NCBI RefSeq assembly: GCF_041260155.1
Contig: NC_091937.1
Coordinates: forward strand, 6,576,626 to 6,640,625
DNA: 64,000 nucleotides
Direction of reading: 5' to 3'
From: Ptychodera flava
Lineage: Eukaryota
Below, in pieces: positions 10,146 to 62,900 of the stretch. A program made the position numbers and the translations under genes. Every line of letters begins with the position of its first letter. Position 1 is the stretch's first letter. A model generated the notes under the pieces. It did no database searches, was not told the origin of the DNA, and worked only from the letters and a program-made list of their open reading frames with translations.

Positions 10146-10362
10146 ATCAGATCACTTGGCTATCCTTCAACAGTGTCAGTTTGTTACATGTACATGTAGT
10201 GTTTATCATCTCATAGGTCAATGTACTAGATGTATCTCTTCAGTTTATATCAGTTTATACAGACTTAGTTATATAAAAACACAGCATAAAGGCAATTCTT
10301 TATAGTTTTAGACTTTATTCTGAGTAAAATTTTATCTGATAGGAGGTTATGCTTCTACTTAC

Positions 10363-11231
10363 TGGCTTGAAGTCAGTTTCTGGCGTACCATTGGTCAATT
10401 GTTGGTCATGTGACGTTATGACAGGTCCATTTGCCCCTGAGGATTTTCTGCTGGAGGTAGACATTGGTGATGTTCTCTGGGTGACCAATGGATCTCTCTG
10501 TAAAACCTTGGCACTTCCCCTATCCTCACTTTTTCCAGACGGTGGCCTCTCTGATGTTCGGCTCCTGTGATCACTTCCGGCATATTCCTTTAGATCTGGA
10601 TTAGAGCTGGGTCTCTCCCTTGACCCTGGCCTTTCCCGACTGCCTGGTCTTGGCACCCCGGCTGATCCAGGTCTTTGACTACTATGATGGGAAGAGCTGC
10701 GGGAACTGGAGGACACTGAACTTTTAGATTTATGCGACCCACGCTCAAACATTTGTTCCACATGTTCTTGGCTGGAGCGTCTACGTCCAGCGTTCATTTC
10801 AAAGAGCTGCGCGACTTCCTGGTCGCTAGCTGCATCCCCTCCATTCCGTCCTTGCCAACTCTCATGGATATTTCCCTGTCCTGAAGCTCTGTCATCAGCC
10901 GGTGGCGGCTCATCACCCCCTTCCCTGGATCCCTGACTGCCACGTCCTACCTGCTCATCAACTTCTACGTCTGACATTCTGTTTTGCCTCCTTCCTGACA
11001 AGTCAAACTCCTCAGCTAAACTAGTCTCTGTTTTCTCAAGTTGCTGTTTCAACAGTTTTTGATAGATTCCAGTCGCTTTCCAAGGCCTGTTTTCTGACAC
11101 CTCACTTTGTTCAATGTCTAGATCTGCAGAGTCACCATTGGGTACGCTCTCTGTTAAAACACTGGGCCGTAATATCGGCGTTGTTTCTGTGAACGAGTCT
11201 GTACTTACTCCAGTTCTTAGATTTTCAGTTT
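10363..11231 (-). CDS. Coiled-coil / Ser-rich protein gene, large Ser/Arg/Gly-rich exon (~289 codons). Encodes ...TENLRTGVSTDSFTETTPILRPSV...SRSSSHHSSQRPGSAGVPRPGSRERPGSRERPSSNPDLKE...TDFKP.
   Basis: Acceptor ttttttacag|AA, donor CCA|GTAAGTAG (perfect consensus). 869-bp open frame on the minus strand. Low-complexity Ser-rich content with SRERPG repeats. Phase-0 end joins the next exon in frame. Confidence 0.65.
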
Positions 11232-14200
11232 CTGTAAAAAAGAATGTCAAAATTTAGCTACAATTTCAGGATTAAAATACTAGAACATGAGGAGATTTCG
11301 AGAGTCAGGATTCAGGATAGCATAAACGGACAATTCTTCAACTTGAGGCTCTTACCCACTCATTGCCTTTGAAACTTGCTGTAATTTGTTGATATTCAGA
11401 TTCAAGTATGAAATGAAATTACTCAGTCAGTTTGAACTTTATTCAAGCAAAACCCTTCCCCATACAATCCACTTTAAATTTAAAGTGTCGTTAGGCATCG
11501 TCAATCTTTTGATGCTGCCCTATACAGCACTGGTATAACTTTAACACATCCATCACAATGATTCATATTTGCTTGAATGAATGGTAGATAGTGTCCTGCC
11601 ACACAAATTGAAACAAAACAGCTAAACTACCATGTTGAGTGGCAAATGGGTCAGTGACACTACAGTACAGCCTGGGACGAACCCTCCCCTATTCAACAGT
11701 AGTCTAGTATTGATACTTAAGCGTTCCTACACAACACACAGTGAGTCAGTGATCCATCAAGTTAACAAAATGCAATACACACTGAGGTCAGAATGATACC
11801 TGGCTCCTCCCACACCAAAGGAGTTTTTTCAAGCTCTTCATTATCCTGTCAAAGTTTGCGTACATTTTTTTCACCTGAAGAGATGCTTACAAAGTCAATA
11901 CTTTATTAGTGAGAAAAAGAACAGTATATCTTCGTAACTCCAATACATATACTGCTACCGTAATAAGTAGCATCTGATGAAACCATACAAAATTCACTCC
12001 TTAATTTGACTGCTTGAAATAAATCCTAAACATAGTCCGAAAGTCTCTCCAAGAACAATTCAACTAATTGATACAAAATGACCCTACGCATGCCATCATA
12101 CTTTTCGAAATCTACTGATGACATATGCTACACATCGTGATACACCCTATATCTGACAAAAAACTCAATAAGTTACCAACCATGTGATTATTGTACTGTT
12201 ATACAGACCCCTGGATGTTTTTGTAATCTGTAAAAGCTGTCACTTGAAGAATTCTTCACACAATCACAATGACACCAAGTTGACAATACTAACACACACT
12301 TCTTACATGTAACAAGCAGACCTATTGAATGACCACAGCTACTAAAAGTTCACATGATGGACAACAATTTTAATGTTCTCCAGGTAATGAGCTAAAAAAT
12401 GGGAGGTGGTAACGCAACAAAGACTCTATTCTAAAAGTAGAACAGCATAGATTTCCAAATCCTCTGGGATCAATCCCACAATGGAAGACATTTACATTGT
12501 AGCGTACATTCAAACGCTTTGATTATTACTGTCATAAATTTTCCAAAACCCCAAGCACACATGCTTTGGACAGAGGCCAAGATCTTTATGGACCTTTAAA
12601 CTGTAAATGTGTACGCCATGCCAAGCTTTGCAACAAATTAACCCAACATGAAAAATCTTGGAGTAGAATCATACTTTTTTGATTTAATAAATTGCTAATT
12701 GATATTACTACCGATTTGAAAACAATCATATATAAGGAATCTATTGTAATTCTTCTATGCGATGCTACAATCACAGCGAAGGGAAATTCAAATTTGTCAG
12801 TAAACTTTTCAAGATCTATTCATAACATCTGCGATTTTAAGAACTACTGCATATCATTTAATCTCAATATTGCAAATATTAAATAGCAGCACAACATTAA
12901 CATCAGTAAAATCATATTCTTTTACTGATGTATCATTAATAGAATTAAATGTCAATCAATTTGGTAAATCTATTGCTCACTAAATTATACAATCATCAGC
13001 ACAGTCTTGACATTACCAAATTACTGACCAAAATTGACAAATCAATGATTTTTGGTATGTGGAGTAATGCTATTGTTGAACAGGTTTGTGTTCATGTTAG
13101 CTGGATGTCTTGACAATGGTGATCTCCTATGTGCAGTGACCTAAAACACAAACGGCGGCGTTCATTTCCTTATCAACCCATTGTGATATCAACAACATGT
13201 GAAATCAGTCAGGTTTACACATAAACTATATCTGAATGGTAGATTTGACTCAAAGGACTGATCTATTTTGATAATTTTTACTTCATTAATTTGCTACACT
13301 GTTACAATGTACACCAAGAACTGCACAGGGCAACCAAAACATGTCCTGCGACTCCCATGGTGACCTATACACACCGCTACAGCAGGTATGTCACTGCACT
13401 GCTATAGTGCTATGTACCCATGCTGTCAAAGCAACAGATCAGATATGTGTGGTTCTTCTCTGCTTTGACACTCTGATCACACAAAATACAGAATATTTGG
13501 CTTACCCCTGGTATCCTGGAGGCTGGTACAGCACACTAGCAATCCAGAGTGTTTGAGGTCACTCTATAACGGCCAGTATGCGTCTCGCGTCTGATCAAAA
13601 ATATTTGATTGAGAGCAACAATGCAATGGCTGACAGTTTCAGGCTTTGAATTGACTCTCATTTGCATCACAAAACACAAGATGGCTGCCATGACCAGCAT
13701 AAGGTAGCTTCCAGGGTTGTTACGGAAACTTTTGTTATGCAAATTAATGTGACTCTTATGGTAATTTAAAGGTTGTACCTCCAGACAAGGTGACCTCTGA
13801 ACTTTTGTGCACGATTCAGACTTAAAAATTTCTGTTCTACTTCTACCATGTCTCTCTTCTTGAATAAGAATTATCAACACTCAGTGTATTATATCATAAT
13901 ATTTTCTTTGAGTGCCAAGAATTGTCAAGACGTATTTTCTAAAGGAATGTCATGAGCCTATGGTTACCACTTTAAGGGACAAAATGTTTGCATTGGTCGC
14001 GTTGTATGTACTGGCTGTATAAAAGTTTAAAGGTCACATCAGAGGAGAAGCTATTACCATAGAAATGGTGTGATCTAAAAAGTGCCTGACCCACACTAAT
14101 TGGTAACACTGTCCATGATTTAGTAGACATTTACTGAAATTGTCGGTGTAAAGACTAGCGAAGATGGCTGGCAGAAATTTGAAGGAAAGCAGTTTGGCTG

Positions 14201-45696: not shown

Positions 45697-45794
45697 CTAT
45701 AACATAAGATCATCATCTTCATCTGTGTTTGGCTTTGTCCTCCTTGGAAGTTCAGGGAGATCTTCCGCAAGTCCCCAGTTTTGCTGTCCAAAAG
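45697..45794 (-). CDS. ARL13B: ARL13B-like terminal coding exon. Encodes (S)FGQQNWGLAEDLPELPRRTKPNTDEDDDLML*, with TAG stop at 45697-45699.
   Basis: Acceptor ttcattgacag|CT in phase 1, matching the exon-8 donor. Short ORF closing with an in-frame stop. No protein-similarity support, so this is the weakest link of the model. Confidence 0.55.
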
Positions 45795-46230
45795 CTGTCA
45801 ATGAAACAAATAAAAGTCGTCAGTCTTTTTTGAAAATATGTCTATCTTCATATTATTTTTCATACAAATACTGACAAAACTCCAAGGAAACTTTTGAGAT
45901 GAATTAGCCAATGTTGCTGAGATTATTTTTAAGTAGCTCTGAGCAAGTTTAGAGACAACAATCAAATCAAAAACAAAATCATCAAATTTAGTTTCACAGA
46001 GATGATCATCATCCTATATTACTACCATTCCCTTTGTTGTCATGGCAAGTAGGAAAGACATCAAAAGTTGCACTACTTTTTTTTGGTAGCATTTTGGTAG
46101 TAAACTAGTATGACAATATGATAACCTAATACATCTTTCAATCGACACGGCGATTGGGCCAGAATGACAGTCAGATGATCATCATGTGACCACATGGGTT
46201 TGCCTATGATATCATATGATATACACTCAC

Positions 46231-46476
46231 AATTTGACTCCACTGGACTGCTGGATCTTGGTGTGTGTTTCTCCATGAGAGGCGCCAACCTGGGTGGACG
46301 AGAGGCTCTGACTTCAAAAATGTTCCTTTGCCCTGGAGCCTGTGCCCATGATGGAGCCATAATAGGTGCTTGAAGAGGTGGAGGATGGAACTCATCTTCA
46401 CCATCAAGTGACATTGGAGCCAATTTATTTTTCTTCTTGAGTTTCTTCTTCTTCTTCTTTTTCTTTTCACTTTCCT
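46231..46476 (-). CDS. ARL13B: ARL13B-like exon 8. Encodes (E)ESEKKKKKKKKLKKKKNKLAPMSLDGEDEFHPPPLQAPIMAPSWAQAPGQRNIFEVRASRPPRLAPLMEKHTPRSSSPVESN.
   Basis: Acceptor tctgatgcag|AG, donor AAATT|GTGAGT. In frame with exon 7. Lys-rich then Pro-rich composition, consistent with the Pro-rich ARL13B C-terminus. Alternative model: read through to a TAG at 46073 as a terminal exon. Confidence 0.65.
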
Positions 46477-46744
46477 CTGCATCAGAATAAAAAGACCTGT
46501 GTTACAATATATTGACAGATATAATAATTTTTGTGATGTGAAGTCGACACACAAAAATAATGACAGACACATACATACACATAGATTTCCTCTGTCACAC
46601 AGAGTAGATTGCAGATGGTACCTATTTGAATTTATTTCAAATTATTGTGACTTTTGCTTTGCTTTAATAGATTCTTTTCACACAATAATAGTTTTCCTTC
46701 GTTGTATCCTGTAGCCTTCACTAAATCAGTACAGCACTACGTGT

Positions 46745-46808
46745 CACTATCATCATTCATGTCAATTTCCCATCATCGTCATCATCACTGTCGTCATCAT
46801 CACTGTCG

Positions 46809-46845
<37 letters not shown>

Positions 46846-46940
46846 TATCACTGTCGTCATCATCATTGTTGTCATCATAATCTTACCTGCCACTTCCTTC
46901 CTCATCTTCACAATCATCAGGTCCTCATCATCATCATCAC
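46745..46940. repeat. (CAT)n / (CATCGT)n microsatellite directly abutting the exon-7 donor of the ARL13B-like gene.
   Basis: catcatcgtcatcatcactgtcgtcatcatcatcatcat... The exon-7 donor (GT at 46885-46886) lies within it. The ORF track spuriously reads it as poly-Met/Thr. Confidence 0.85.
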
Positions 46941-47541
46941 CACCACCGTATCGTGGCAACCGACTTTCCTCCTGGAACGAGGACTCCTTCGCATTCTTGG
47001 ATTTTGAGGAATAATACATTTCATCAGCGTCATCATCCTGATCTGAAGCCACATGAATAATACGTCTCCTGCCAGAATGCTTGGAATCTTCCACACTTGC
47101 ACTGTCCATTTCATAACTGTCACTGTCATCACGCCTTTGACTTCTGAAAAATGTTTCTTTTTTCCGTTCAAGTTCATGGTCATATTTTTGCCTGGAATAG
47201 TCTGATTCGTCAGACTTTTTGTTGTCCTCATCACTGTCATCATCCAAATAAAATCCATATCCCCCTGTTTTTTTAGTTCTAGATCTAGGTGTCAATTTGG
47301 GAGATTCGTACGATTGTTTATAGCCATCCTCATCATCATCACTGAATCTCTGTTTCCGTGGTGATTTCTTTTTCTTCATCCTTGGACTTTTGTGAGGCTT
47401 TTTGGTCACAATTTCTTCATCCTCCTCATCAGATGCATATGATTTGTGATTTTTCACTTTCATCTCATCTTCATCGGTATCTTCGGGGAGTTTCTCTTGC
47501 TTAGTGGGTTTCTTCTTTGGTTTTTTATTCTTGCTGTCAAA
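46887..47541 (-). CDS. ARL13B: ARL13B-like exon 7. Large K/D/E/S-rich low-complexity exon (~218 codons). Encodes FDSKNKKPKKKPTKQEK...SDEEDEE...SDDDEDG...DDDSDED...RYGGGDDDDEDLMIVKMRKEVA(G).
   Basis: Acceptor ttttgtttcag|TTT, donor GGCAG|GTAAGA. Uninterrupted 655-bp reading frame, joined in phase 0 to exon 6 and in phase 1 to exon 8. Alternating Lys-rich and acidic Ser/Asp/Glu clusters (CK2-type sites). No counterpart in human ARL13B as I recall it. Confidence 0.7.
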
Positions 47542-48049
47542 CTGAAACAAAACATTGGAATCTATTGAGTGAAGTACATGTCACACCAAGATTAAAACAA
47601 TACTCAGATTCAAATTGGTCTTCTCTGAAAGTGAATGTGGAAACGTCACAGAACTAAACACACTACATGTACATGATTTTCATGTTAGGAATTTGAAAGC
47701 ATAATTGAATTCTTGGTGTTAAGTGCTTGGTACAGTGTATTCTTCCTTTAACCTTTTCATCCTATGTCCCTGTAGATAGATTCCAGTCTACTAGCCAGTA
47801 CAGGGGAACAGTTGATTTGGGCTAACCCACAGTGGAGAAAGGGGTAAAATAAGTACATGAATTACAATGCAACAGTGAGTGCATGAAAAATACAGTATGT
47901 ATTATCATGGTCTGTCCATCACACCATGCATAATTAATATTGCATAGATGCCATTTTTTGTTTGTTTGGTGGTTCATTTCTTGATGGTACACTAGTATTT
48001 GCTTAGTATTTGAATGGATTGGGGGATAATTATTACAGATATAACTTAC

Positions 48050-48170
48050 TTTCATTTTTTCAACAGGTTTGAAAGGATTGTCACCAACATGGACATCATC
48101 ATCATCATCATCTTCACTTTCTTCTTTCTCAATTCCTTCTCTTTTCCTTCTTTCCTCTTCCTCCCTTTCT
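48050..48170 (-). CDS. ARL13B: ARL13B-like exon 6. Encodes (R)EREEEERRKREGIEKEESEDDDDDDVHVGDNPFKPVEKMK.
   Basis: Acceptor ttccttacag|AG, donor ATGAAA|GTAAGT. In frame with exons 5 and 7. The NPFKPV motif resembles human ARL13B NPFQPI. Acidic low-complexity content. Confidence 0.75.
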
Positions 48171-48870
48171 CTGTAAGGAAACAAATTCAAATTCTGTAGC
48201 TGAGAGTTGCCATGTCCATTGGTCACATTGGCTGCATTGTTTTACATAACCACCTCTGGTTGGATTTTCATATGAGGTTTCTGTTGAACACGATAGCACA
48301 CCTTACCAAAAATATTTTATTCGACACTCGACTGACAAAGCTCTCTCACAAGATCATGATGTACTCACTACCAACCAAATAAAGACGTAAATAAGGTTCC
48401 TTGCTGAATGGCAAAAATCTATGTTCCAGTCTCAGACTGAAATCTACAAACAGACTACAACTATGCATATTACAAAGATATTTCCTGTGTTTCAATTCAA
48501 ATTTTATGAACATAACCAACATAGTTTTGAAAAACTTTCGTAATGCAAATCTCTCACTTGATTAGCCAATTTTAAATGTAAATTACACAGATCTTCTTGT
48601 TTATGGCAATTAAAACTGAATATCTTCTATATCATTTACATCTATAATTTGGCACATTTTGAGACAATGTGAAACCGAGAATTATTATTGTATGTTAAGA
48701 TGAGTCAAACAGTACTGATTTCCATTGTCCAGATGAAAGTTTTTATATTATATTTTAAAAGATCACAGTATAGAATATTTCTAAAGATTAAAAATTTGGT
48801 GGCACAGTGAAAGGAGGGGGGGGGGGCCATTAAACACAAAAACAATTTCCATAGGTCTCCTTTTTCTAAC

Positions 48871-49073
48871 CTTTCTTCCCGGATTTTCCTGACCCTCTCC
48901 AATCTCTCTTTCTTTTCAATAGCCTCTAGTTCCCTTTGTTCCTGTGTTTCCTCTTCAACTCTCTTTCCCAGTTCATCCCATTCCTCACTGATAGTCATCA
49001 ACAGCCACTTGAATCCCGACTTGATTGACTTGTCCATCTTCTTGCCGATGCCGAGAGTCGCAGAACATGTCTC
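48871..49073 (-). CDS. ARL13B: ARL13B-like exon 5. Encodes [67 protein letters not shown](R).
   Basis: Acceptor aatttgtag|GAG, donor GAAAG|GTTAGA (weaker donor). Aligns to human [59 protein letters not shown] (the coiled-coil segment). Phase-consistent with exons 4 and 6. Confidence 0.85.
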
Positions 49074-49515
49074 CTACAAATTGATGTAAACAATGAGAAG
49101 AATTCTGTCAAGTTACCATATAATTATGAAGCCTTTTCTTTCCTAACAACAGCTAAGGTCTACCATATAAGTAGAATACCCACAGCATTTAAAAATTCTG
49201 CCAGATCAGAGGCATATTGCAGATGATTGGCAGCCAGGCAAAGTTAGGAGCTGATTAGTGGTGCATTTTTTTATAAGAAAAAGACAATTTTCATGGGAAA
49301 AAGCTGATTATGAATAAATGAATAGATATCAATCTGTCTGCTATGTAGACACAAATTGTACAAACTGAGTTTATCATATTGATTTTCAGTATAATGCCCC
49401 TGGCCCTGTCACTTCGATATATGTGCCTACAATGTCACTCTGGCTGTCTTTTACCCACTTGACACTACAGTGTTTGCTTCGTCTTTTCCATTTACTCTAC
49501 TGTTTCTTGGAATCT

Positions 49516-50234
49516 AAAGTATTGCATGACTTACCACTCTGCAAGGACTCTGACTAAAGTATTGCATGACTTACCACTCTGCAAGGACTCTGACTAAAGT
49601 ATTGCATGACTTACCACTCTGCAAGGACTCTGACTAAAGTATTGCATGACTTACCACTCTGCAAGGACTCTGACTAAAGTATTGCATGACTTACCACTCT
49701 GCAAGGACTCTGACTAAAGTATTGCATGATTACCACTCTGCAAGGACTCTGACTAAAGTATTGCATGACTTACCACTCTGCAAGGACTCTGACTAAAGTA
49801 TTGCATGACTTACCACTCTGCAAGGACTCTGACTAATGTATTGCATGACTTACCACTCTGCAAGGACTCTGACTAAAGTATTGCATGACTTACCACTCTG
49901 CAAGGACTCTGACTAAAGTATTGCATGACTTACCACTCTGCAAGGACTCTGACTAAAGTATTGCATGACTTACCACTCTGCAAGGACTCTGACTAAAGTA
50001 TTGCATGACTTACCACTCTGCAAGGACTCTGACTAAAGTATTGCATGACTTACCACTCTGCAAGGACTCTGACTAAAGTATTGCATGACTTACCACTCTG
50101 CAAGGACTCTGACTAAAGTATTGCATGACTTACCACTCTGCAAGGACTCTGACTAAAGTATTGCATGACTTACCACTCTGCAAGGACTCTGACTAAAGTA
50201 TTGCATGACTTACCACTCTGCAAGGACTCTGACT
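49516..50234. repeat. 40-bp minisatellite, ~18 tandem copies (taaagtattgcatgacttaccactctgcaaggactctgac).
   Basis: Near-identical 40-mers. One 39-bp variant (~49721) and one A>T variant (gactaatgta, ~49836). The 3'-most copy is continuous with ARL13B-like exon 4. On the minus strand every copy reads CAGAGTCCTTGCAGAGTG|GTAAGTCATGCAATACTTTA. Confidence 0.9.
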
Positions 50235-50319
50235 CTCGTTCACCATGTCTTCAAGATTCAGCTTCTCACAGATGTCAATTTCATCAAGAGCACCGTCTTC
50301 ATCTTGTTTGTTTGCAAGG
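50214..50319 (-). CDS. ARL13B: ARL13B-like exon 4. Encodes (V)LANKQDEDGALDEIDICEKLNLEDMVNESQSPCRV (NKQD G4 motif).
   Basis: Acceptor ttgtatacag|C, donor GAGTG|GTAAGTCATGC. NKQD is the G4 guanine-specificity motif. Aligns to human [38 protein letters not shown]. Phase-consistent. Confidence 0.88.
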
Positions 50320-53153
50320 CTGTATACAAACAAAACACCATGAATGGGAAATTAGTTTTGTGTACTTTAAACAACAACACACAAGAAGGGCTGCATATCA
50401 TGTTGGTAGTATCAGTGTTTTTCATAGCTTGTAAAAACAGTGGGACAGGCAATTTACATAACAATGCACAATATGCATATTCTTTTGATGTGAAAAATGT
50501 ATTCTAGATCACTAGAAATACAAAGTGGTAGCCCACTGCTCAAAATCCCCTTAATAATTGTGGATAGTTTTGAACAGGTGCAGAAAAATGCTATCTAGAA
50601 TGAAACTGTTTGAATATATAGAGATAATTCTTGATGAGTGTTCAGGCACTGTTGGGATGAGATAGGGAGACATCTCCTAGATGGTGATTGATTTTTTACT
50701 TGCCCTTGACACAGTTCCAGGCTGTCTCTAGAGGGCGCACATGCACTGGCTGATAAGACTTCTTATTAACTTACAAATTACATATGATAGTGAACTTAAT
50801 TTTCAATAAGACCTGAACCAAAGAAATTATGTTAAGTATACCGGTATTTAGTACAATGAAATCAGTACATTAACAGATCACATAATGTTTTTATCATAAT
50901 TGGGCAGAAATTTGATAATACTAGTCGTAAATCATCAATAGGCAGAATTTACAGCAAAATCATAGTGAAATCACAAAATATATGCTGCAATATTACAGTG
51001 TTCAATGGTCAGCTGTAGTTTGTTATATGTCATCGTTACAGAGAAAGAAACCTCCAGTCTAAAATAAATAGTAAATCTCTGCCATGAGATATGATTGATA
51101 ATGTGTAAAATTTCTCTCTCTGTGTTGAAATTAAACCCACACACGCTGGGTGATATCGTGAAATTGTACACCGCTCAGAATTAAAGTACCCTTGACTCTT
51201 TGACTGCTGCTTTTATGAATAATTCATCAAACGACTACTTCCTGATAGTTCAATGGAAATGACATAAACAGATGTGCCAAGTCCTGAAGGCATGAACGCA
51301 GAGCTTCCAACAAATGAAATAGCTCCATGTTCAAATCAATTGCTTACAATGACATTACGGAAACACTAGTCATCTGGAACGTGATCTTTCTTACCATAGA
51401 TTGGAAAGGGGTATTCTAATCCTACATGAAGGGCTGAGTATTCGGTACAACAACTTTTCCTGTGAATGCCATGTGTCTCTATGAATTATTTCATCAAATT
51501 CCACAGGAAAATATGAATAATATTCCTACGTATATTATATCACTGAAGATTCTCTAATCCTCTAGTGCAGAATTACATTTTATCAATAACTTCTTGAAGC
51601 CACTGAATTTGATTTCAGTGAGTTTTTTCAGGTTCATATTGCTGTCAGCAACAGATATTTCATTCTTTCAAATTTACCACAAAATATTGGCAATTTGCAC
51701 CTACCATGTATTTCACCAAATTTTTCATATTTTTCATCCTTAAAAATTTAACACATAATATTCTGCAATCTGTATCTTTATTTACATTTGTACAATTACA
51801 GTGTATATTTAGATTTGATTTATTGAAATGGGTTCAAAGTATTAGACAGAGCAGCTATGAAATGATATACCGGTACATGCAATATGAGTCAGACAGGGAT
51901 AGTATTTCATTTTTGCCAAAATCAAGATTTCTCTTCAACTGATTGAGTTACTAGTATTGCTGTCTTCATGATTTACAACTACCGCAGTATGAATCGAACG
52001 TCCGAACTGATAATTCGGCCTTTTTTTCATATCACTTGTCATGCAAAGAAACATTACAATTGAAACTTTAATAGGCAGCCTTGTGATAATTATATATTAT
52101 GTCTCATATGAGTTTTCTGAATTTCAGTGAAATCTGACGGAATCACATTTCCTGATACGTATACTGGTACATATGAACCATCAGAACTTGTTTTTAATGA
52201 AGTCTTCAGGGAACTGAGTAGCTGCACTCAGATAGTGAATGTAACATGAACCAATAAATGTCCCTGGTTTTAACACTTGAGCTAGTTGCTATTTCAATGT
52301 TTTTCTTTCAGGTGGAATGCACCGTGGGGATATTTGGACTCTCAACCTGTCAAGATTCTTTTCTGGTCCCACCACTTGTGGAGGCACATTTTGAAGTTCA
52401 TGAAGTGACTAAAGCTCAGCTTACTGGGTTGCTTTTGTGAAAATCATAAATTTATTTTTCCTCATTAGAGTTAGGACAGGGATGGTGGCCATTTTGAATT
52501 TAAAGTATAAGTAAAATTGGGTAATCTGTAGTACAAAATTTTGCATGATCACAACTGATTTTTATTCATGATTTCAAAAGGGAATAATTTAAACATTCCT
52601 ATAGACAGTTTGAACAAAAGTTTATATCTTTTAATTTCAAGGTGCGTATTACCTTAAGCTCCCTCATGGTTTGTGTTTGTTATAAAACTTCACTGACCAA
52701 ACTATTTTGTGCACTGTAAATCTTCCCTCGCATTTAAAATTTGCTGCAGCTTTTTAAAATAGTAATGGTTGAAAACACACACTTGGACTTGAACTAGAAC
52801 ACGAAAGAGATTGTACTGTATGCATGAAATGGAGTTGATAACGGTAGAAACAGTAAAATACTCAATGATTAGTTTATACAATTGAATTGATTGAATGATT
52901 ATTATAAAGCAATGTAATATTTGCTCATGACTAGCGTTACCTGCATCTGGATTTATTTTGCTAGATACCACCTTGTAGGATAAAAGTTTGTACCATACTC
53001 TATCCTCTCTTTTCAGAACCAAAGTTTGGTATAACCTCATTGTATTCTATAGCATAGCTGTACCACTTTGTAGAAAGAGAGAGGCAAAAGTATTGGAACT
53101 GATCAGATCATCTGGAATGTGATATTCTGATACTGATAAATGCATATACTTAC

Positions 53154-53403
53154 ACCAACAATGGTTTTCCTTGTACCCGTTTGTCTCCCAGCACAGCCTT
53201 CAGAGTTTCCCTTGACTCTTCCAGTCTCTCTTGATCAGCGGCATCAATGACAAATACAACCCCATGGCTTTCAGAGTAGTAGTTCCGCCAGATTCCTCGG
53301 ATCTTCTTGCCACCTCCGAGGTCATAGACCGTAATTTGAAACTTGTCAACCTTAAAGTCTACACTTGAGAAACCTACAGTTGGGGCAACACTTTCAAGAG
53401 GCT
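53154..53403 (-). CDS. ARL13B: ARL13B-like exon 3 (GTPase core). Encodes EPLESVAPTVGFSSVDFKVDKFQITVYDLGGGKKIRGIWRNYYSESHGVVFVIDAADQERLEESRETLKAVLGDKRVQGKPLLV.
   Basis: Acceptor tgtttcag|AG, donor TTGGT|GTAAGT. Contains the ARL13-specific DLGGG switch-II motif (human FDLGGGIRIRGIWKNYY) and APTVGF. 250 bp, phase-consistent. Confidence 0.9.
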
Positions 53404-56400
53404 CTGAAACAGGAAGAGAATAAATGTATAAACTATATGCTTTCTCAGTTTACTTACACACTTTACTTTGAACACCAAACAACTACCAGTGATAATTTTT
53501 CCCCTTTCTCTCCCTTGCTTTTGGTTTGTTCCTATTATTTCAATAGTGTAGACAGACCCATGAATAAAGAAATGGGTTGGCTAAAATTCCATCATAGTGA
53601 ACCTGTGAGATTTTGGGGGCTTTTTCGTGGGTATAAACATTTCAAGGAACCTTTTCATCATCACGTTATGGTTGGTAAAACACTTAGTGTCCAATGGGAA
53701 GTATGGACCTGTACATGTACAGCAGGAAAAACCAATAGGGATGAAATAATGGTACATGAGCATGCAGGCTTGCTGTTCTGCGCTAGGGTATTTATTTCAA
53801 TTGCCTTAATTGTTATACATGTATGGCTCCATTAAGTAATGACATGTCCACAGGTGACAACACGGATATTGCATTTTACTTGTAGTCAGCAAATGGCGCT
53901 GAACTGGATAACAAATTCTCCATGCAATAAATGATAAATTGTGGCTCAAATTACTCCACTGAATATACTGCAATTTGTCATGTTGGGGTTTTCAGATTTG
54001 TGCGGCTCGGTTAAATTTTCGGTTTGTGAAAAATTTTCTCTTGCTCTTGATTAAGTCTACTGGTTCCAAGTGGTTGGTATGATAATTAGCTGGGAGACAT
54101 CTCCTAGTAATCCACATATAGGTATGTGTTCTATCCATCATGTCTGCCATGTTCACAATTATCATCCGTTATGAAGATAATGAGTAATTATTAGCCATTG
54201 GTTGAGTTCCACTTGGTACAGATGATTGTATGCAATCACATAATGACATTACGTTAATGTCAATAAGCATAAAAAGGCCTACCAGTATTTACAATGTAAA
54301 CACTTACTATTCCCATAATACATTCCCAAACAAGCTATTCGAAATGGGAGACCATAATATTAACAATTCAGACATTAATTTCTATATTTTTGATGTATTT
54401 ATTTAAATGCACTATGAAAAACCTCACAATTTTTTATTGTGAATGCTAAATAATGAGAATTTTTATTTTTTTTACGAATATTTGCATCATCACAATTTTT
54501 CTTTAAACAATGCGGCAGACAAATAAACAATAAAATCGCAATTACTGCAAAAAACCTGCAAAACAGACTTTAAATCTGGAAATAAAATATTATTTTATCC
54601 TTATTTGCTATTTTATTACAGAAATTAAGACATGTAGACAAATTCTGACTAGACTTCTTTTGCAGAGAGACATGAAGAAAATGTTTTGTGAATTGATACC
54701 TTGTGCTTGGACTTTCTACCAGCAGGCAGCCATATTGAATTTCAGATTAATGATGGTTTTACTGCGCCCATTGAGAAGCACACAAATTTCATTCATTAAA
54801 ACGGACTCTGAATTCCTTTTTGGGAAGTTTTGAATTCTCAGTCTTAAAACTTTTCACTTTTGATATTTGGTAAGTAATTAGTAACCTGTCTGTCAACTCA
54901 AGTGTTTATTTGATGTTTTGACTGTGTAGTTGACAACATCCCCTGAGCAAGCAATGATTTGAGACTGAAATTCAAGGAAAAGGCAAGTGACACGGTGTAA
55001 GTTCAACACCACCACAGTCTAGCATTACAGTAGTCTAGTACCGTATTTCCTGTCCTGTTTTCGTATACAAAACTATTGATGTATCAAGCAAGGGATAGAT
55101 TACTAGACTATGGTACAGGTAGCTGACCAATGATAATAGACATAGCAATAATTTGGAATTTCATCATCACCGATATTGTCCTTTTAACATATAAACAAAA
55201 TTAGAAAAAAAAACATGAGTAGAATAATTTCTACAATGGATTATCCAGAAAAAGACAAGAAATAACAAAATTTGCAAATTATCACAATAGCAATGACTGT
55301 CACTAGAACCAACTTTCAACATAAGACAAAGGGTGATGTGAAGTTTGAATTCCCACTATTTTCAGAACAGCAATTATAAAATTTTTGATGTCCAGGATTT
55401 GTTGCTATGGTGACATTGCCTATATTATGGCCTTTTGGGTTTTTAGAAATTATAAATATGGTATTCTCAAAAGTGCTAATTACCTTCATGTACAATTACA
55501 AGTTCCTATCATATTTTTGTTTTGACAAAGAAAATCACATTCACCACACCAACCCCCAACAACCAAATGTACATGTCACATTTTTCAGTTTAAGCATAAC
55601 AAATAAGAGATCACCAATGGATTAATCTCAACTTTATACCATAGAAAGATGTGGCTATAACACACCTGTAAGTATTTTACAAACTTAAAGTTAGCAGATC
55701 TATTCATATTAAGATGGTCCACCTACAGCTCTTGAATATGTTAGCAGACTCAATGAATACATGGCACAGACGGCATAGATAGTAGCAATTCAATGTACAC
55801 ACTGAGTTTCCTTTGCAAGTAGAAGAAGTGTTTATTAGCGGTATCACCATGCTACATAATTCCATGCCAATTAATCATTTCAACAGGTTTAAAAAGAGAA
55901 TATCCTTCTATGAAAAGCAATATGATTTCAGTTCCTTGAATTTTTTTCCCATTTGATAATTAAAGCATCCATTCATAATGAACATAGTAAAAAAAAAATT
56001 ATCCTGGTAATTTTGAAGTGATTCATTGCCCTTTGCTGGCCATGCATTCCTGGTCTGTACTTCTGATGGTACTACATGTAAACCGTACTCAGATAAGAAC
56101 TGTTTTATTTAATTTGTAAGTCACTATTCTTAAATTCTATGCCTCTGATACAAAGGTGAACTGAAATTGTAATTGCAGGATCAAATAAATCAAACAAAGG
56201 GACTTTAGTTTGTTTTTAAACACTGCGATTAAACATTAATTTACAGGATATGTTCACACAAAATACATTATTTACTCATCGCAAAACTTTTTTGACAAAC
56301 AGAAAGCTTATCAAATACGTTATTATTCAAGAGACATTTAATTTTTGTTACAATGTCAAGTAAACGTGTTGAAAAAGTTGTACATTCATATGCAGACTGA

Positions 56401-57807
56401 TATCAGACATGTAGTTTTTACAGATTACAACTTTTGCTGTGTTATAACACAGGAGACACTGAGGTTGTACACATGCTTTATCAAAGACACATGTTTGATA
56501 AATTGTGACAGAACACCTGACACCTTGTTGATCTGTGATAAAAAGGGCACAGGTTCATATGCTCAAGGTGACGTCAATTCAACAATTTAGAAATTTATCT
56601 GGATAGATTAACACTTATCAGTTTAGTGCATACATATTATTTGCAATAGCTACTACAAGTTGTCAATATGTAATGTGGCTGCATAAGTGTCGAACCCTGA
56701 TTGAAATTAAATGAATGTTTCATTCCTACAATTGAAATTGAATGAACGTTTGATTCGTACGAGATCTGCAACATCAAATGATGTCGGTATATGGTCTAGC
56801 AGTACACCTTTGCAATGTCCATGCATTCAGCAGTACAAAAGTTTGATACAATCCAGTGATTAAGATTACCATCAGATGTTACATCTGATGTAATTGTAAC
56901 AAGTTTCCTACTTACATGTATTATCCACTAATGGTCTAACAGTCTAACTAACAAAAAAACATGCATGAATTGCTATTAGCAAAAATATAACACAGTTAAT
57001 GGTGAATGTGTTGATAAACACTTCTTCTGTATTTTTTGGCCGATCTTTTATTTCTTCAAGACACGCACTGCACCCTATTCATTTAAAACTGTATGGTATA
57101 CATGTATCTCTAAACTTTATGACAGAGAGAAGTTTGACATCATATTTGACTTCAAAAGCATAGTTTAGACACAAAGTTACAAAATATTAGAGACCTAATA
57201 TTTGGCACATTGCATCCACGATGAATGTAAGAATTACTGGCAAGAGGATGTCATATCATTATTACTGTAGATTGAGTGGGTAGCCTTTTTCATGCAAGGA
57301 GATAGATGGGACTTCACTGAATGGAAGTTGGTTTTCAAATTAAAAGTTCAATGCCCTAAAGTAATGGATCTGGTGGTTCCAGGGAGTACACTAGAGAACT
57401 TTGGCCGGGTTGCCATGATCCAAATATCAAATTGACAAATTATTTCATGTTTATTGTTCATAGCCTGATCATAGTCCCTCCCTTGGATGGGAGTGACTAG
57501 TGCCTATGGACTGAGTCACAATGTTTGTCTGAAAACTTCCTTTGGACTAGAATGAAAAGTGAAATCTGCATTGACATTGGAGAATGACAAACAAGTTGCA
57601 TGAAATGATACTTGATGAAAAAACAAAGTAATCTGTCTAATCTTGAGCATTATCTTTCAAACACCCTATTGGTTTGCTGCTTTATAAGGCTTTTGAGCAA
57701 AATGATAGCATTGTGGTATTGAACACTGAACAGGAAATATCATTGTGTTATGCCAGATGGGGAGTTGATTGAGATGGGCAAGTCTTATCGCGGTCACTTC
57801 AAAAAAG

Positions 57808-58750
57808 TGGTCTTACATAATGCACAGTCGCTCAAGAGTTATTCAGCTCTTGGACTAGTCGCCCCATAGACGAGTATACAGAAGAGAGAAATACCTCAAG
57901 TCTGGAAACAGAATGGCTATAAAAACCACGCCATGTCACATTCCGTGTCCGATTTCACTGTGAAAATTAGCAAGTTCAACTATCATGCAACGCGTCGATC
58001 GTTCCCTACCATTCTAAAAAATCATACCTGATACTATATCTGATTCAAAAACGCTCGTTTCGTGTGATTTTCGGCCGAATTCGACGGACAACTCGCCAAA
58101 ACCTGGGGGTGAGCAACATTCCGGTCACCTCTTGGGTACCTCCACTTTACTGACGTTTGCGCAGCCTACCCATGAGGGATGACTGGAATGTTGCTCACGC
58201 TTATGTTTTGGCCAGGTGTCTCTTGAACTCGGCCGAAAATCACAGGAAATGAGCATTTTGTAAGCAGATGAAGTATCACGTATGAATTTTTCGTGTGATT
58301 TTTCGGCCGAGTTCAGAAGACACGTCGCCAAAACATAAGGCATGAACAACCTTCCAGTCACCCCTCATGGGTACGCGGCGCTAACGTCAGTAAAGTGGAG
58401 GTGCCCAACGTCCACTGTGAGGTGCCCGGAATGTTGCTCACGCTTATGTTTTAGCGACGTGTCCGTCGAATTCGGCCGAAAATCACACGAAACGAGCGTT
58501 TGTGAAGCAAATCAAGTACCAGGTATGAATTTTGAGAATGATAGGGAACGGTCGACGGTTACATGATAGATGAACTTGCTACTTTTCACGGTAAAATCGA
58601 ACATCGAAGTTGACATGGTGGCAAAATCCCTATACGAAATAGCCATTCTGTTTCCAGACTTGAGGTATTTCTCGCTTCTGTATACTCGTCTATGGGGCGA
58701 CTAGTCCCAGAGCTGAATAACTCTCGAGCGACTGTACATAATGGAAGAAT
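57808..58750. mobile_element. Foldback-type element: ~940-bp near-perfect nested palindrome in ARL13B-like intron 2.
   Basis: The outer arm at 57808-57918 is the reverse complement of 58641-58750. The inner arm at 57960-58110 is the reverse complement of 58380-58600. The centre (58120-58380) carries four alternating-orientation copies of cgtgtgattttcggccga(a/g)ttc...cgccaaaac...gagcaacattcc. Symmetry centre ~58265. Confidence 0.75.
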
Positions 58751-59141
58751 TTTTATCAGTGGCTGGATAATGGTGAGCAGTCAATATTGGTATAATAAAT
58801 TAAGGTAAATATCACATCTCAGCGGGTAGTGCAGAAATGGTGTTGACAAAGTCCCCTGGTCAGTGTCACTTTCAATTTGAGAAAAGCATGACACGCATGA
58901 GATGAAAATGTCCAATCTAAATATCCACAATTATACTGTGTCACAAATATCATCATGTGGTCTATATCATCCAGTCAGAAAAATCACCACAATTTCAAGT
59001 GTTTTGTCGCAGTGACTTATTGCTAGCTCATGGTATTTTGAAAGTTCAAATCACACTGTCTAAACGAGACTACAGTACAGTCTCTGATTTTTTACAAAAG
59101 TGGCCATCATTTTCAAATTTGTCTTATTATCTGCAGCTTAC

Positions 59142-59212
59142 CTCCTTTGACCCCCTTGATGGCTGTAGTTTTGCCAGCATTATCAAGACCAACCAAGCAT
59201 AGTGTCACTTTC
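59142..59212 (-). CDS. ARL13B: ARL13B-like exon 2. Encodes (R)KVTLCLVGLDNAGKTTAIKGVKG (P-loop).
   Basis: Acceptor ttctccag|G, donor GGAG|GTAAGC. Translation contains the G1/P-loop motif GLDNAGKT, as in ARL13B (VTLLMVGLDNAGKTAT). Phase-consistent with exons 1 and 3. Confidence 0.88.
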
Positions 59213-59302
59213 CTGGAGAAAAATTACATGCAGTGGTTAATGCACATTGTTTCACATCAACAGAAACGTTGAGTCTTTTAAAACATATCCACATAGCTAT
59301 GC

Positions 59303-59932
59303 TGCAAAATTGTAGCGCTATACGGTGAGGCGGTCGGTGATTTTTGGTTTTTGCGACTTCGCTCACCAGTAGCGCTACAAGGCCGATGGCCCTGGGGAGT
59401 ATCATATAAGCGCGTCGTATTCGACCAGGCGTTTTGATGTGGAATGCAACATATTTACTGCATTTGGTCGTACCGATTTATCACTACTGAAGACTAAACA
59501 GTATACTGCACTAACTTTGTCATTTATGGGGTTTGGAATTTGTTCAAACACGACGATCGCGTTCTGAAAACATTGAGCGTGGGGCGTCGGTGTTTGTGGG
59601 AGCCGCCATTACCGGAAGTTGGTAATGACGGCTCCCAGAAATGTTTCGGAACGCGATCGTCGTGTTTGAACAAATTCCAAACCCCATAAATGACAAAGTT
59701 AGTGCAGTATACTGTTTAGTCTTCAGTAGTGATAAATCGGTACGACCAAATGCAGTAAATATGTTGCATTCCACATCAAAACGCCTGGTCGAATACGACG
59801 CGCTTATATGATACTCCCCAGGGCCATCGGCCTTGTAGCGCTACTGGTGAGCGAAGTCGCAAAAACCAAAAATCACCGACCGCCTCACCGTAGCGCTACA
59901 ATTTTGCAGCTATCCACATAGCTATGCAGAGA
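59303..59932. mobile_element. Large palindrome / foldback element (~275-bp arms, ~80-bp centre) in ARL13B-like intron 1, flanked by a 15-bp direct repeat.
   Basis: ctgcaaaattgtagcgctatacggtgaggcggtcgg... at 59303 is mirrored at ...ccgaccgcctcaccgtagcgctacaattttgcag, ending 59932. The centre holds its own small hairpin gagccgccattaccggaagttggtaatgacggctc. Flanks: atccacatagctatg occurs at 59288-59302 and 59918-59932. Confidence 0.8.
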
Positions 59933-60297
59933 CTATGCAGAGACTATGCACAGAAGTTTAAAATTGACCCATGAAAAGCTGTAATTTTCCACCGTGATTT
60001 TAATAAGGTAGCTTTCAGATTTGCAAGAATGCAATGGAAAACTTCAAAGGACATCAGCTTCATCTATTATCAGAAATAGAAACGACAGCCAGACACTGAG
60101 CTTCTGTTTGACATCACCAGAACAGACCTTGGCCTTGGTGAACCCGCTGTGAAAAAGAAACTTAATTTGGGAAGAATTGAAGCCACATCACATAAAGTAA
60201 TAACTTTTCTGGTACATTGTAACTTTTTGGCAGCAATGAGTCTGGTATGTATTTTCATACTACTGACTGTAGATGTAGTAAAATGGGAATAACTTAC

Positions 60298-60356
60298 CTT
60301 GGAGGCACTCGCCTTTCTTTGATCCAAACGAAACAGTTCCCCATCAGGCTAAACAT
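60298..60356 (-). CDS. ARL13B: ARL13B-like exon 1 (start codon at 60356). Encodes MFSLMGNCFVWIKERRVPP, then donor CCAAG|GTAAGT.
   Basis: Minus-strand ATG followed by a peptide matching the vertebrate ARL13B N-terminus ([21 protein letters not shown]) from memory, including the conserved Cys8. Consensus GTAAGT donor. Lies at the edge of a CpG island. Ends in phase 2 and joins exon 2 in frame. Confidence 0.8.
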
Positions 60357-61200: not shown

Positions 61201-62594
61201 AGCTGCAGTTGTCTGTCCCATGATCCCTAAAACTTGAAACTAATAGTGGATAAACATTGACAAATTTATTAAAATAGGGGGTGTTGCGTATTTTATAGTT
61301 AGGCCTAGTAGGCTATTGGTTGATCATAAAAGAACGACGTAATGAATTGTTGGTATATGGGGCAAATTAGGCGGAAATGGTTAAATCGAACTTGTTGCAG
61401 ATGGCATATTTGGCATATTGTTGTTGTTGTTGTTTTGTGGATAAACCATTAAATAACCACTTTCGATAAGCAATTAGGCCTATGCTTCGAAATTTTAAAC
61501 TTATGCGCTGAGTTGCTATAAATAATACAATATTTACACTACTCAAGTTTTTTTTTATCAGACGGTACACGTTTCTTTCATCAGAAGTTTTTAAATTGGT
61601 GATATCAATCCGACTTTGAAGAATGGCTAGGTCACTGGACCATACTTGACTACCAACATCAAGACATCTTCGTATTAAAAATAGTGAATCATCATCATCC
61701 AGTCTGCATACCCCACGCGATGCCAAAACCAAAACTTGACAGAACGTCGTTAATAACTTTGTTATGCAAAGTTACATGTAATCTTTCTAAAAGCAGAGTG
61801 TTTCCAAAGACTGTCTACCAAATCCTATATAGTAGCTCGAGGTAAAGGGTATTAGGGTGGGACGGTTTTGCCGTCCGACCAAAATAGCCTACTCAGGCAA
61901 AACCTCGAGCTACTGTACTGCAGCTACCAAATCCCGAGCCACTCACGTAGGGCAAAATGGTCACCTACCCTCGGGCACATAGTCCCATGATTAGGCTATA
62001 ATCTATTTTGGTTTTTTTCCCCTTAATATGTTGCCTATGATACATTTTTTCGGAAATATTGTGGTCAGTGTTTGATCGCCCTGAACCCCCTGAAAAATAA
62101 CAATAATTTGGAAAAAATATCCCTGCCGATCTACCTACCCTATTTTTGAAAACCATGTTATCGGAACAGCAGAATCTATTTATTTACTTATTTTTTGCCT
62201 ACAATGAGAGTATAGAGAAGACGATAAATGATTACACAGTTAGCGGGCTTTTAAAAACGCCATCAATCGACAAAGTTCCGAAAGTTATAAATGCAGCGCC
62301 CCCACACTTCAGAATGTCGTTCGTTGTTCATTCATTGAAATCGAGGCTACCTAATGTTTGGGTTTTGCTAATGAGGCCATCTTGAAAATCGGAGGATTGT
62401 GCTGTGTAGATAAGCCGCGTACCCTTTGGAATATCTGCTATCATCTGCGTCATTCCACAACCAAATTCGTCGAAAACAGCGGTGATACATCGTGGAATAA
62501 TAGTCACACCATCGGATTTTGTTTTTGTTTGGTTAGAGTGGGAACTATTTGGACATTTAGCCGTGTGAAACTTGCAGGCTTTCACAGTCCAAAA

Positions 62595-62900
62595 ATGGCC
62601 TGTGGTGCAACGTTAAAACGGACTCTAGATTTTGATCCTTTACATAGTCCTTCGCCGTCACCGAAAAGACGAAGATGTGTGCCTCTTATACCGCCAACAA
62701 CACCACAGACAAAGGCGCATCAGTTAGAACCGTCACCGTTTGGCCACGTTTCACCAAAGTTAACGCCAGGTAAGACCGGAAGAAGACAAAGACGCTGCAA
62801 AAACAGGTCGAACATTGCGAGTCAAGTGGAGCATAATTTAAATGGCGTCGTTTGCAAGTTTGAGCCTGTTCGAAAGCTCATTGTTTTATCACGATTTTGA
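62595..62900 (+). CDS. Candidate small basic protein ORF (101 aa). Encodes [101 protein letters not shown].
   Basis: ATG with aaaaATGg context ~1.4 kb beyond the CpG island, on the strand opposite ARL13B-like. SP/KRRR-rich (NLS-like). A possible GT donor at ~62770 (CGCCAG|GTAAGACC) means it may instead be a first coding exon. No family recognised. Confidence 0.3.

Follow-up and report, generated by a model that had tools for sequence, protein, structure and literature searches.

A 64-kb window of the Ptychodera flava genome (contig NC_091937.1; the window is the whole stretch of 64,000 nucleotides analysed here) holds on its minus strand, between 60356 and 45697, the gene for ARL13B, an ADP-ribosylation factor-like protein. 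After scanning the three minus-strand frames for motifs and reading the DNA around each block, the gene was rebuilt exon by exon into nine exons, starting at an ATG (60356) and closing with a stop codon that ends at 45697, yielding a coding sequence of 1809 nt that translates into 602 residues followed by TAG. All eight introns are of the GT..AG type, with consistent phases. The original prediction for this stretch had proposed the same nine-exon model, and its motifs, start and stop all lie where it had placed them, the coordinates being exact.

All features of the gene given below are on the minus strand. Exon 1 (60298..60356) carries the ATG and encodes MFSLMGNCFVWIKERRVPP(R), the amphipathic helix of the N-terminus, which includes Cys8 (codon 60333-60335), while the P-loop GLDNAGKT is found in exon 2 (59142..59212; GLDNAGK at 59170-59190). 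Exon 3 (53154..53403) comprises the switch regions, with R79, W82, Y86 and a DLGGG motif devoid of the catalytic Gln (53309-53323), and exon 4 (50214..50319) holds the NKQD guanine-specificity motif (50301-50312). Exon 5 (48871..49073) completes the G domain and adds the long alpha-6/coiled-coil helix, with R200, K216 and R219; KSIKSGF (49011-49031) and ERVRKIREE (48873-48899) are read in it, and its donor (gttaga) is weak. Exon 6 (48050..48170) encodes EREEEERRKREGIEKEESEDDDDDDVHVGDNPFKPVEKMK, in which an acidic run precedes the NPF[KQ]P motif, with EREEEERRKRE at 48137-48169. Exon 7 (46887..47541) consists of 655 nt and 218 codons, as had been claimed, and encodes a charged, blocky linker predicted to be an intrinsically disordered region (IDR); at the base composition of the window, an open frame of 218 codons has a probability of ~3e-7 of arising by chance. 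Finally, exon 8 (46231..46476) contains a poly-K run (46427-46468), a KLAP site (46415-46426), a Pro-rich stretch and an RLAPL motif, and exon 9 (45697..45794) the conserved C-terminus NWGLAEDLPELPRRTKPNTDEDDDLML with the TAG stop.

For exon 8, an acceptor reading cacag/GT was tried and discarded, as it gives the wrong frame and an Arg/Lys-rich open reading frame (ORF) unlike that of any orthologue; the tgcag/AG acceptor was chosen because it restores the KEVA-EESEKKKK junction, as found in other species. At the start of intron 7, a (GAT)n / 15-mer microsatellite of ~105 nt (46771-46878) adjoins the Asp-rich end of exon 7 and is, on the plus strand, the source of a spurious His-rich ORF (46654-47007). 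A poly-Asp reading of this tract was also rejected, since it belongs to another frame and lies beyond the TAA made by the GTAAG donor; the tract is regarded as intronic because in-frame read-through past this TAA would give poly-Met.

The 602-residue translation is identical (100% identity, 100% coverage) to RefSeq XP_070567727.1, "ADP-ribosylation factor-like protein 13B [Ptychodera flava]"; ARL13B of P. flava is already annotated in RefSeq under its right name, and the rebuilt model reproduces it exactly. Pfam recognises the Arf family (PF00025) at residues 20-187, with E = 3.3e-43 and 147.6 bits versus a cutoff of 22.3. The best solved structures are those of Chlamydomonas ARL13B (5di3_B and 4m9q, E = 2e-54), aligned over residues 19-248 with the extra helix included, while those of ARL2 and ARL3 match at E ~1e-32, 22 orders of magnitude below the ARL13B entries in PDB. 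Among the best 120 matches, all those bearing a gene name are ARL13B. The protein is, in addition, collinear from end to end with mammalian ARL13B, down to the C-terminal KPN-D..D motif. The proposed orthology is thus borne out by the RefSeq protein, the named matches and the matching mammalian exon boundaries and, judged from sequence, the gene is an ordinary ARL13B orthologue and the single ARL13B gene of P. flava.

Residue conservation was evaluated on a 13-species alignment, in which Elephantulus (P0089), a shark (P0059) and a barb (P0112) are included as vertebrates. C8, T35, G73, G74, R79, W82, Y86 and R200 are invariant, and both K216 and R219 are present in the P. flava protein. DLGGG occupies residues 71-75, where Arf proteins read DVGGQ, with G75 found in 12 of the 13 species, and ARL13B has been described as devoid of the catalytic Gln (PMC4868535). 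The exchange activity of ARL13B on ARL3 requires the G domain together with the helix that follows it, and activation of ARL3 is impaired by the R79Q, R200C and K216E/R219E replacements (PMC4868535). In an AlphaFold2 (AF2) model built on a shallow alignment of 13 sequences, the G domain and the helix at residues 194-240 appear with a predicted local distance difference test (pLDDT) score of ~91, and a further helix is predicted at the N-terminus (residues 2-16). The N-terminus (MFSLMGNCFVWIKERR) contains the predicted cysteine, C8, but as a single residue, unlike the vertebrate pair, the second one (C9) being exclusive to vertebrates among the 13 species. Roles have been reported for both the N-terminal helix and the palmitoylation of ARL13B (PMC10011728).

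Exons 6 and 7 had been presented as an acidic/basic block without equivalent in the vertebrate protein and as a lineage-specific expansion. The genomic loci of five orthologues (from Saccoglossus, Glandiceps, an urchin, a crinoid and a mammal) were therefore compared after mapping their own proteins back onto them, a procedure that in Glandiceps did not recover exons 5 and 6. Boundaries at residues 43/44, 127/128, 162/163, 230 and ~266-272 are common to the five and, wherever it could be mapped, the segment past the NPF motif forms a single exon. This exon 7 measures 75 aa in the mammal Elephantulus, 150 aa in the crinoid Anneissia, 181 aa in Saccoglossus, 218 aa in P. flava and 281 aa in Glandiceps, the P. 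flava exon being ~143 codons longer than that of the mammal and showing a much smaller excess relative to echinoderms. The next exon opens with one or two acidic residues followed by poly-K (DNSKKKTKK in the mammal, DESIVKKKK in the crinoid, EESEKKKK in acorn worms), and the junction peptides PVEKMK/FDSK and KEVA/EESEKKKK are kept in other acorn worms. Upstream, the acidic run of exon 6 and its NPF[KQ]P motif are kept from vertebrates to a nemertean, with P262 and F263 invariant in the 13 species. Human ARL13B has been laid out as PAL-GTPase-CC-IDR-RVEP-PRR, where PRR stands for the proline-rich region (PMC12289987), and its IDR, the counterpart of exon 7, is likewise charged. Since the exon boundaries match, the acidic/basic block is a lengthened orthologous exon and no new insertion. 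Accordingly, the supposed absence of the block from vertebrates is not upheld, exon 6 being conserved and exon 7 corresponding to the IDR of human ARL13B; the proposed lineage specificity is partly borne out, by islands within exon 7 that can be aligned among three enteropneust families.

Measured from the NPF motif to the RVEP-equivalent [KR]xxP site, the linker extends over 241 aa in P. flava, 304 aa in Glandiceps, 204 aa in Saccoglossus, 125-177 aa in eight echinoderms, 157 aa in the nemertean and 78-99 aa in three vertebrates, all measured linkers being charged (13-29% D+E and 17-30% K+R). For a wider survey, residues 1-270 were compared with 1.84 billion cluster representatives (50% identity) in a profile-free search with automatic measurement of the landmarks. 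In the 30 ARL13B-like representatives where both landmarks were recognised, linker length has a median of 162 aa, between extremes of 72 and 449 aa, and reaches at least 241 aa in seven. The P. flava linker is, hence, situated in the upper part of an ordinary length distribution, and the ARL13B IDR, encoded by one exon, stands out as a hotspot of length change. Such variability is consistent with the dispensability of this region in human cells: in RPE1 cells, IDR-deleted ARL13B is still ciliary and the IDR is dispensable for ciliogenesis (PMC12289987). One route of growth can be demonstrated, because exon 7 of Glandiceps displays a clear internal duplication of a short unit (DIAMDTYFGRQSRDSE / DVAMDTYFGKQNRDSD), with a score of 73 versus 34 ± 3.4 in shuffles. 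For P. flava, growth by tandem duplication was considered and rejected, the best off-diagonal 16-aa match scoring 36 versus 32.3 ± 4.2 in shuffled sequences (P = 0.2).

The 259 residues of exons 6 and 7 contain 15% D, 15% K, 14% E, 11% S and 8% R, amounting to 29% D+E and 23% K+R, and these charges are arranged in blocks, as indicated by a mean squared net charge in 5-aa windows of 5.1 versus 2.4 ± 0.36 in shuffles (z = 7.6). The many CK2-type sites that had been attributed to the block were overstated: in exon 7, minimal [ST]xx[DE] sites are not enriched relative to composition-preserving shuffles (8 versus 8.7 ± 2.3), and strict [ST][DE]x[DE] sites are so at best marginally (5 versus 2.2 ± 1.4, P ~0.06). 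In the AF2 model, pLDDT falls below 50 at residues 246-382 and 407-474, with weak helices at 383-404 and 476-504, and no Pfam family was found in exon 7 at E <= 1. The stretch that links the coiled coil to the targeting site is thus predicted to be intrinsically disordered and longer than in vertebrates.

Exon-7 peptides of the two other enteropneusts show 43-53% identity to that of P. flava, concentrated in islands; over residues 1-270, identity between P. flava and Saccoglossus is 81%. The islands read F.xKK...KKxPxKQxKLP, KSYxSD-acidic, HKSP[RK][ML]-basic, STP[KR]S..TKK, [RK]II[HQ]V[AT]S-acidic and DEDxM[IL]xxMR[KR]EVA, with KSPRL present in crinoids too. Acidic Ser sites are kept in the three enteropneust families at SDEED (residue 307), SDDDE (337), SDEDN (373) and SDQDD (436). 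The centre of the exon is variable in length, largely gapped in Saccoglossus and longest in Glandiceps.

At the site equivalent to RVEP, located just past the poly-K run, P. flava reads KKKKKKKKLKKKNKLAPM, with KLAP at residues 506-509. Across the 13 species the proline of this site never varies, and the first position is taken by K, R or Q: the mammal shows RVEP, the shark KVEP, the barb (Puntigrus, a cyprinid fish) RVDP, the nemertean QTVP, urchins and crinoids KTAP, starfish KLAP and Saccoglossus KLGP. In the 30 representatives, KTAP occurs six times, KLAP four, RTAP three, RVAP and KVEP twice each, with others making up the rest. The strict RVxP is found in only two of the 30, which speaks against RVxP as a family-defining feature and not against membership of the family. 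As far as this comparison goes, the 'RVxP' of ARL13B across animals is a looser [KRQ]-[VLTI]-x-P located past a basic cluster, in which only the proline is fixed. Published work on ARL13B describes RVEP and its basic flank (human residues 347-363) as required for full ciliary enrichment, and TULP3 as bound by the N-terminal helix, which is capable of targeting a fragment without RVxP (PMC10011728, PMC12289987, PMC12154643). The earlier remark that no RVxP-like motif was to be seen in the C-terminal exons is then correct for the strict motif at the homologous site, but it overlooked the KLAP present there. A literal RVPP also exists elsewhere, at residues 16-19 (60300-60311, minus strand) in the region of the N-terminal helix and in P. 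flava alone; it is probably a coincidence, because other species read REP(P/V/R) at this position. Further downstream, the C-terminal stretch is modestly Pro-rich (HPPPLQAPIMAPSWAQAP...RPPRLAPL) and aligns with the proline-rich stretch of vertebrates, a region for which binding to IFT46/56 has been described (PMC12154643), and L583, P592 and N593 in exon 9 are invariant in the 13 species.

Upon the gene structure, orthology, exon homology, residue conservation, predicted disorder and linker-length distribution observed here, a working scheme can be outlined, in which the protein's biochemical activities and whatever part the linker plays are inferred from sequence. By homology, the palmitoylatable Cys8 and the amphipathic helix would hold ARL13B at the membrane of the cilium, the G domain without catalytic Gln (DLGGG) and the long helix would activate ARL3 as a nucleotide-exchange factor, and the basic cluster, KLAP and the proline-rich tail would serve ciliary targeting and binding to the intraflagellar transport (IFT) machinery. 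The end of exon 6 and exon 7 would form the disordered linker between the helix and the targeting sequence that is common to every ARL13B, the orthologous exon having grown to 181-281 codons in acorn worms. This linker most likely behaves as a flexible, highly charged, blocky polyampholyte acting as a tether or spacer and carrying a few short conserved motifs, namely the acidic Ser sites and KSPR.

It is therefore very probable that the gene encodes an ordinary ARL13B, in which the block is the orthologous IDR exon, lengthened, with no new domain and with the core function unaltered. Several points nonetheless weigh against this explanation. Inclusion of exon 7 in full depends on the gene model of RefSeq, on the frame being open and on conservation between species; the disorder was predicted from the shallow alignment already mentioned; in P. 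flava exon 7 no TRF (Tandem Repeats Finder) repeat was detected, so that repeats do not give the route of growth in this lineage; and the homologous targeting site shows KLAP in place of a strict RVxP. Moreover, the islands kept across three enteropneust families, together with the charge blocks (z = 7.6), suggest a selected function beyond that of a passive spacer. These same features would suit a lineage-specific, phospho-regulated functional module made of CK2-type acidic Ser clusters alternating with basic clusters, which would endow ARL13B of acorn worms with a new regulated property and in whose favour count the four acidic Ser sites kept in the three families, the KSPR[ML] island in common with crinoids, the blockiness of charge and the 5 strict sites versus 2.2 expected. 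Such a module is, however, unlikely, given that minimal CK2 motifs equal expectation, that in human cells neither ciliary localisation nor ciliogenesis requires the counterpart of this region (PMC12289987), that linker length varies from 72 to 449 aa across representatives and that the middle of the exon is variable even among acorn worms. Going one step further, the KSYxSD-acidic, HKSPRM-basic, RIIHV[AT]S-acidic and DEDxMIxxMRKEVA islands might be new short linear motifs, adding a possibly kinase-controlled interaction absent in vertebrate ARL13B; the DEDxMIxxMRKEVA region and residues 383-404 are predicted to be weakly helical, and in one version of this idea the K-blocks could bind axonemal tubulin tails electrostatically, switched by phosphorylation of the neighbouring Ser residues. 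We regard this proposal as quite improbable.

A different kind of objection concerns the gene model, since exon 7, or part of it, might be intronic or alternatively spliced, leaving a protein of nearly vertebrate length. The (GAT)n microsatellite adjoining the exon and the weak donor of exon 5 could be taken as signs of this, but an open frame of 218 codons is hardly expected by chance, the same single large exon with its flanking peptides is found in Saccoglossus, Glandiceps and a crinoid, and the RefSeq model is identical. Furthermore, skipping exon 7 would shift the frame of the conserved exons 8 and 9, because 655 nt is not a multiple of 3. An artefact of this type is thus highly improbable. 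As for the protein being another ARL (ARL13A, ARL2, ARL3 or ARL6), the shared Arf fold, reflected in the matches to ARL2 and ARL3 structures, is all that speaks for it; the named matches, the far better agreement with ARL13B structures including the extra helix, and the collinearity and exon boundaries in common with mammalian ARL13B oppose it, the comparison with solved structures covering ARL2 and ARL3. ARL13A is a short paralogue that is not known outside vertebrates. The probability of such a misassignment is considered negligible. The ordinary ARL13B with a lengthened IDR exon is hence the explanation retained, and its significance beyond annotation is small. The looser targeting site of ARL13B should temper motif-based predictions of ciliary targeting, and the enteropneust islands, if functional, would represent a small case of disordered linkers gaining new interactions.

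Some peculiarities in and around the gene deserve description. On the minus strand, a 40-bp unit (TCAGAGTCCTTGCAGAGTG/GTAAGTCATGCAATACTTTAG) is repeated 18 times in tandem (99% match) over positions 49514-50234; it is composed of the last 19 nt of exon 4, the GTAAGT donor and 21 nt of intron 4. An intact CAGAGTG/GTAAGT donor is present in 17 of the 18 copies, of which only the first yields the conserved ...SPCRV/ETCSA junction, later donors adding 40(k-1) nt with an in-frame TAG. The array may represent either a genuine minisatellite of decoy donors or an error of the assembly; intron 4 of Saccoglossus, of ~400 nt, has no room for such an array. Intron 1 harbours a perfect inverted repeat, with 249-nt arms (59321-59569 and 59644-59892) that are 100% complementary and separated by 74 nt, and no further copy of it was found within the window. 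It could correspond to a foldback insertion or one resembling a miniature inverted-repeat transposable element (MITE), or also to an assembly artefact. Within intron 2, GTCACCATAGCAAC (55401-55414) is near-palindromic and is the sole strict match to the RFX X-box (GTNRCC(N0-3)RGYAAC) in the window, none being found upstream of the ARL13B ATG; with ~0.25 strict matches expected by chance, as a rough estimate, this match alone is no proof of regulation by RFX.

Outside the gene, a plus-strand ORF at ~62590-62900 that contains EPSPFG lies head-to-head with ARL13B, ~2.2 kb upstream of its ATG; it may encode the N-terminus of an akirin-like protein, and Pfam gave no hit. A Ser/Arg/Pro-rich open frame of 311 aa (SSSSRSSSHHSSQRPGSAGVPRPGSRERPGSRERP) at 10315-11250, minus strand, probably represents a large exon belonging to another gene, and it gave no hit in Pfam either. 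In the Elephantulus locus (L004), intron 3 of ARL13B hosts a syntaxin-family gene (Pfam PF00804; 49099-49983) in the opposite orientation. The introns of P. flava are much shorter, and its intron 3 contains no ORF of at least 130 aa, in a search not aimed at syntaxin.

When compared with known systems, the catalytic part of the P. flava protein finds its structural counterpart in Chlamydomonas ARL13B (4M9Q, and 5DI3 in complex with ARL3), whose G domain and alpha-6 helix align with residues 19-248 and constitute the module that acts as guanine nucleotide exchange factor of ARL3 (PMC4868535). The solved constructs end past the helix and offer no counterpart of the linker or tail. Longer linkers than that of P. 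flava, of 386-449 aa, are displayed by representatives P0171 (802 aa), P0187 (766 aa), P0205 (758 aa) and P0153 (725 aa), which, compared by landmarks, share with it the NPF motif, a charged S-rich linker, the basic cluster followed by N[KR][LVT]xP, and WGLAE[DE]LP near the C-terminus. The closest relatives compared, Saccoglossus kowalevskii XP_002735021.1 (566 aa) and Glandiceps talaboti XP_077977080.1 (658 aa), show 60-61% full-length identity and have in common with P. flava the nine-exon layout, the one large exon 7 and its islands. They differ within that exon, Glandiceps by the internal duplication DxAMDTYFG[RK]Q.RDS, absent in P. flava, and Saccoglossus by alignment gaps where much of the central segment is missing.

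Vertebrate ARL13B departs from the P. flava protein in an exon 7 of 75 codons instead of 218, in the C8/C9 pair instead of one Cys, and in RVEP or KVEP where P. flava reads KLAP. In the mammal, 23 residues (381-403) between exon 8 and the last exon were also left unplaced, relative to the nine exons of P. flava; they correspond to the 69-bp exon 9 of mouse (PMC12154643), and that region lies within P. flava exon 8. On the contrary, the Cys8 helix, GLDNAGKT, DLGGG, NKQD and R79/W82/Y86/R200/K216/R219 are the same in both, as are the long helix after the G domain, NPF[KQ]P, the charged disordered linker, the basic cluster followed by xxxP, the tail (only modestly Pro-rich in P. flava), the C-terminal KPN.D motif and the exon boundaries through exon 8.

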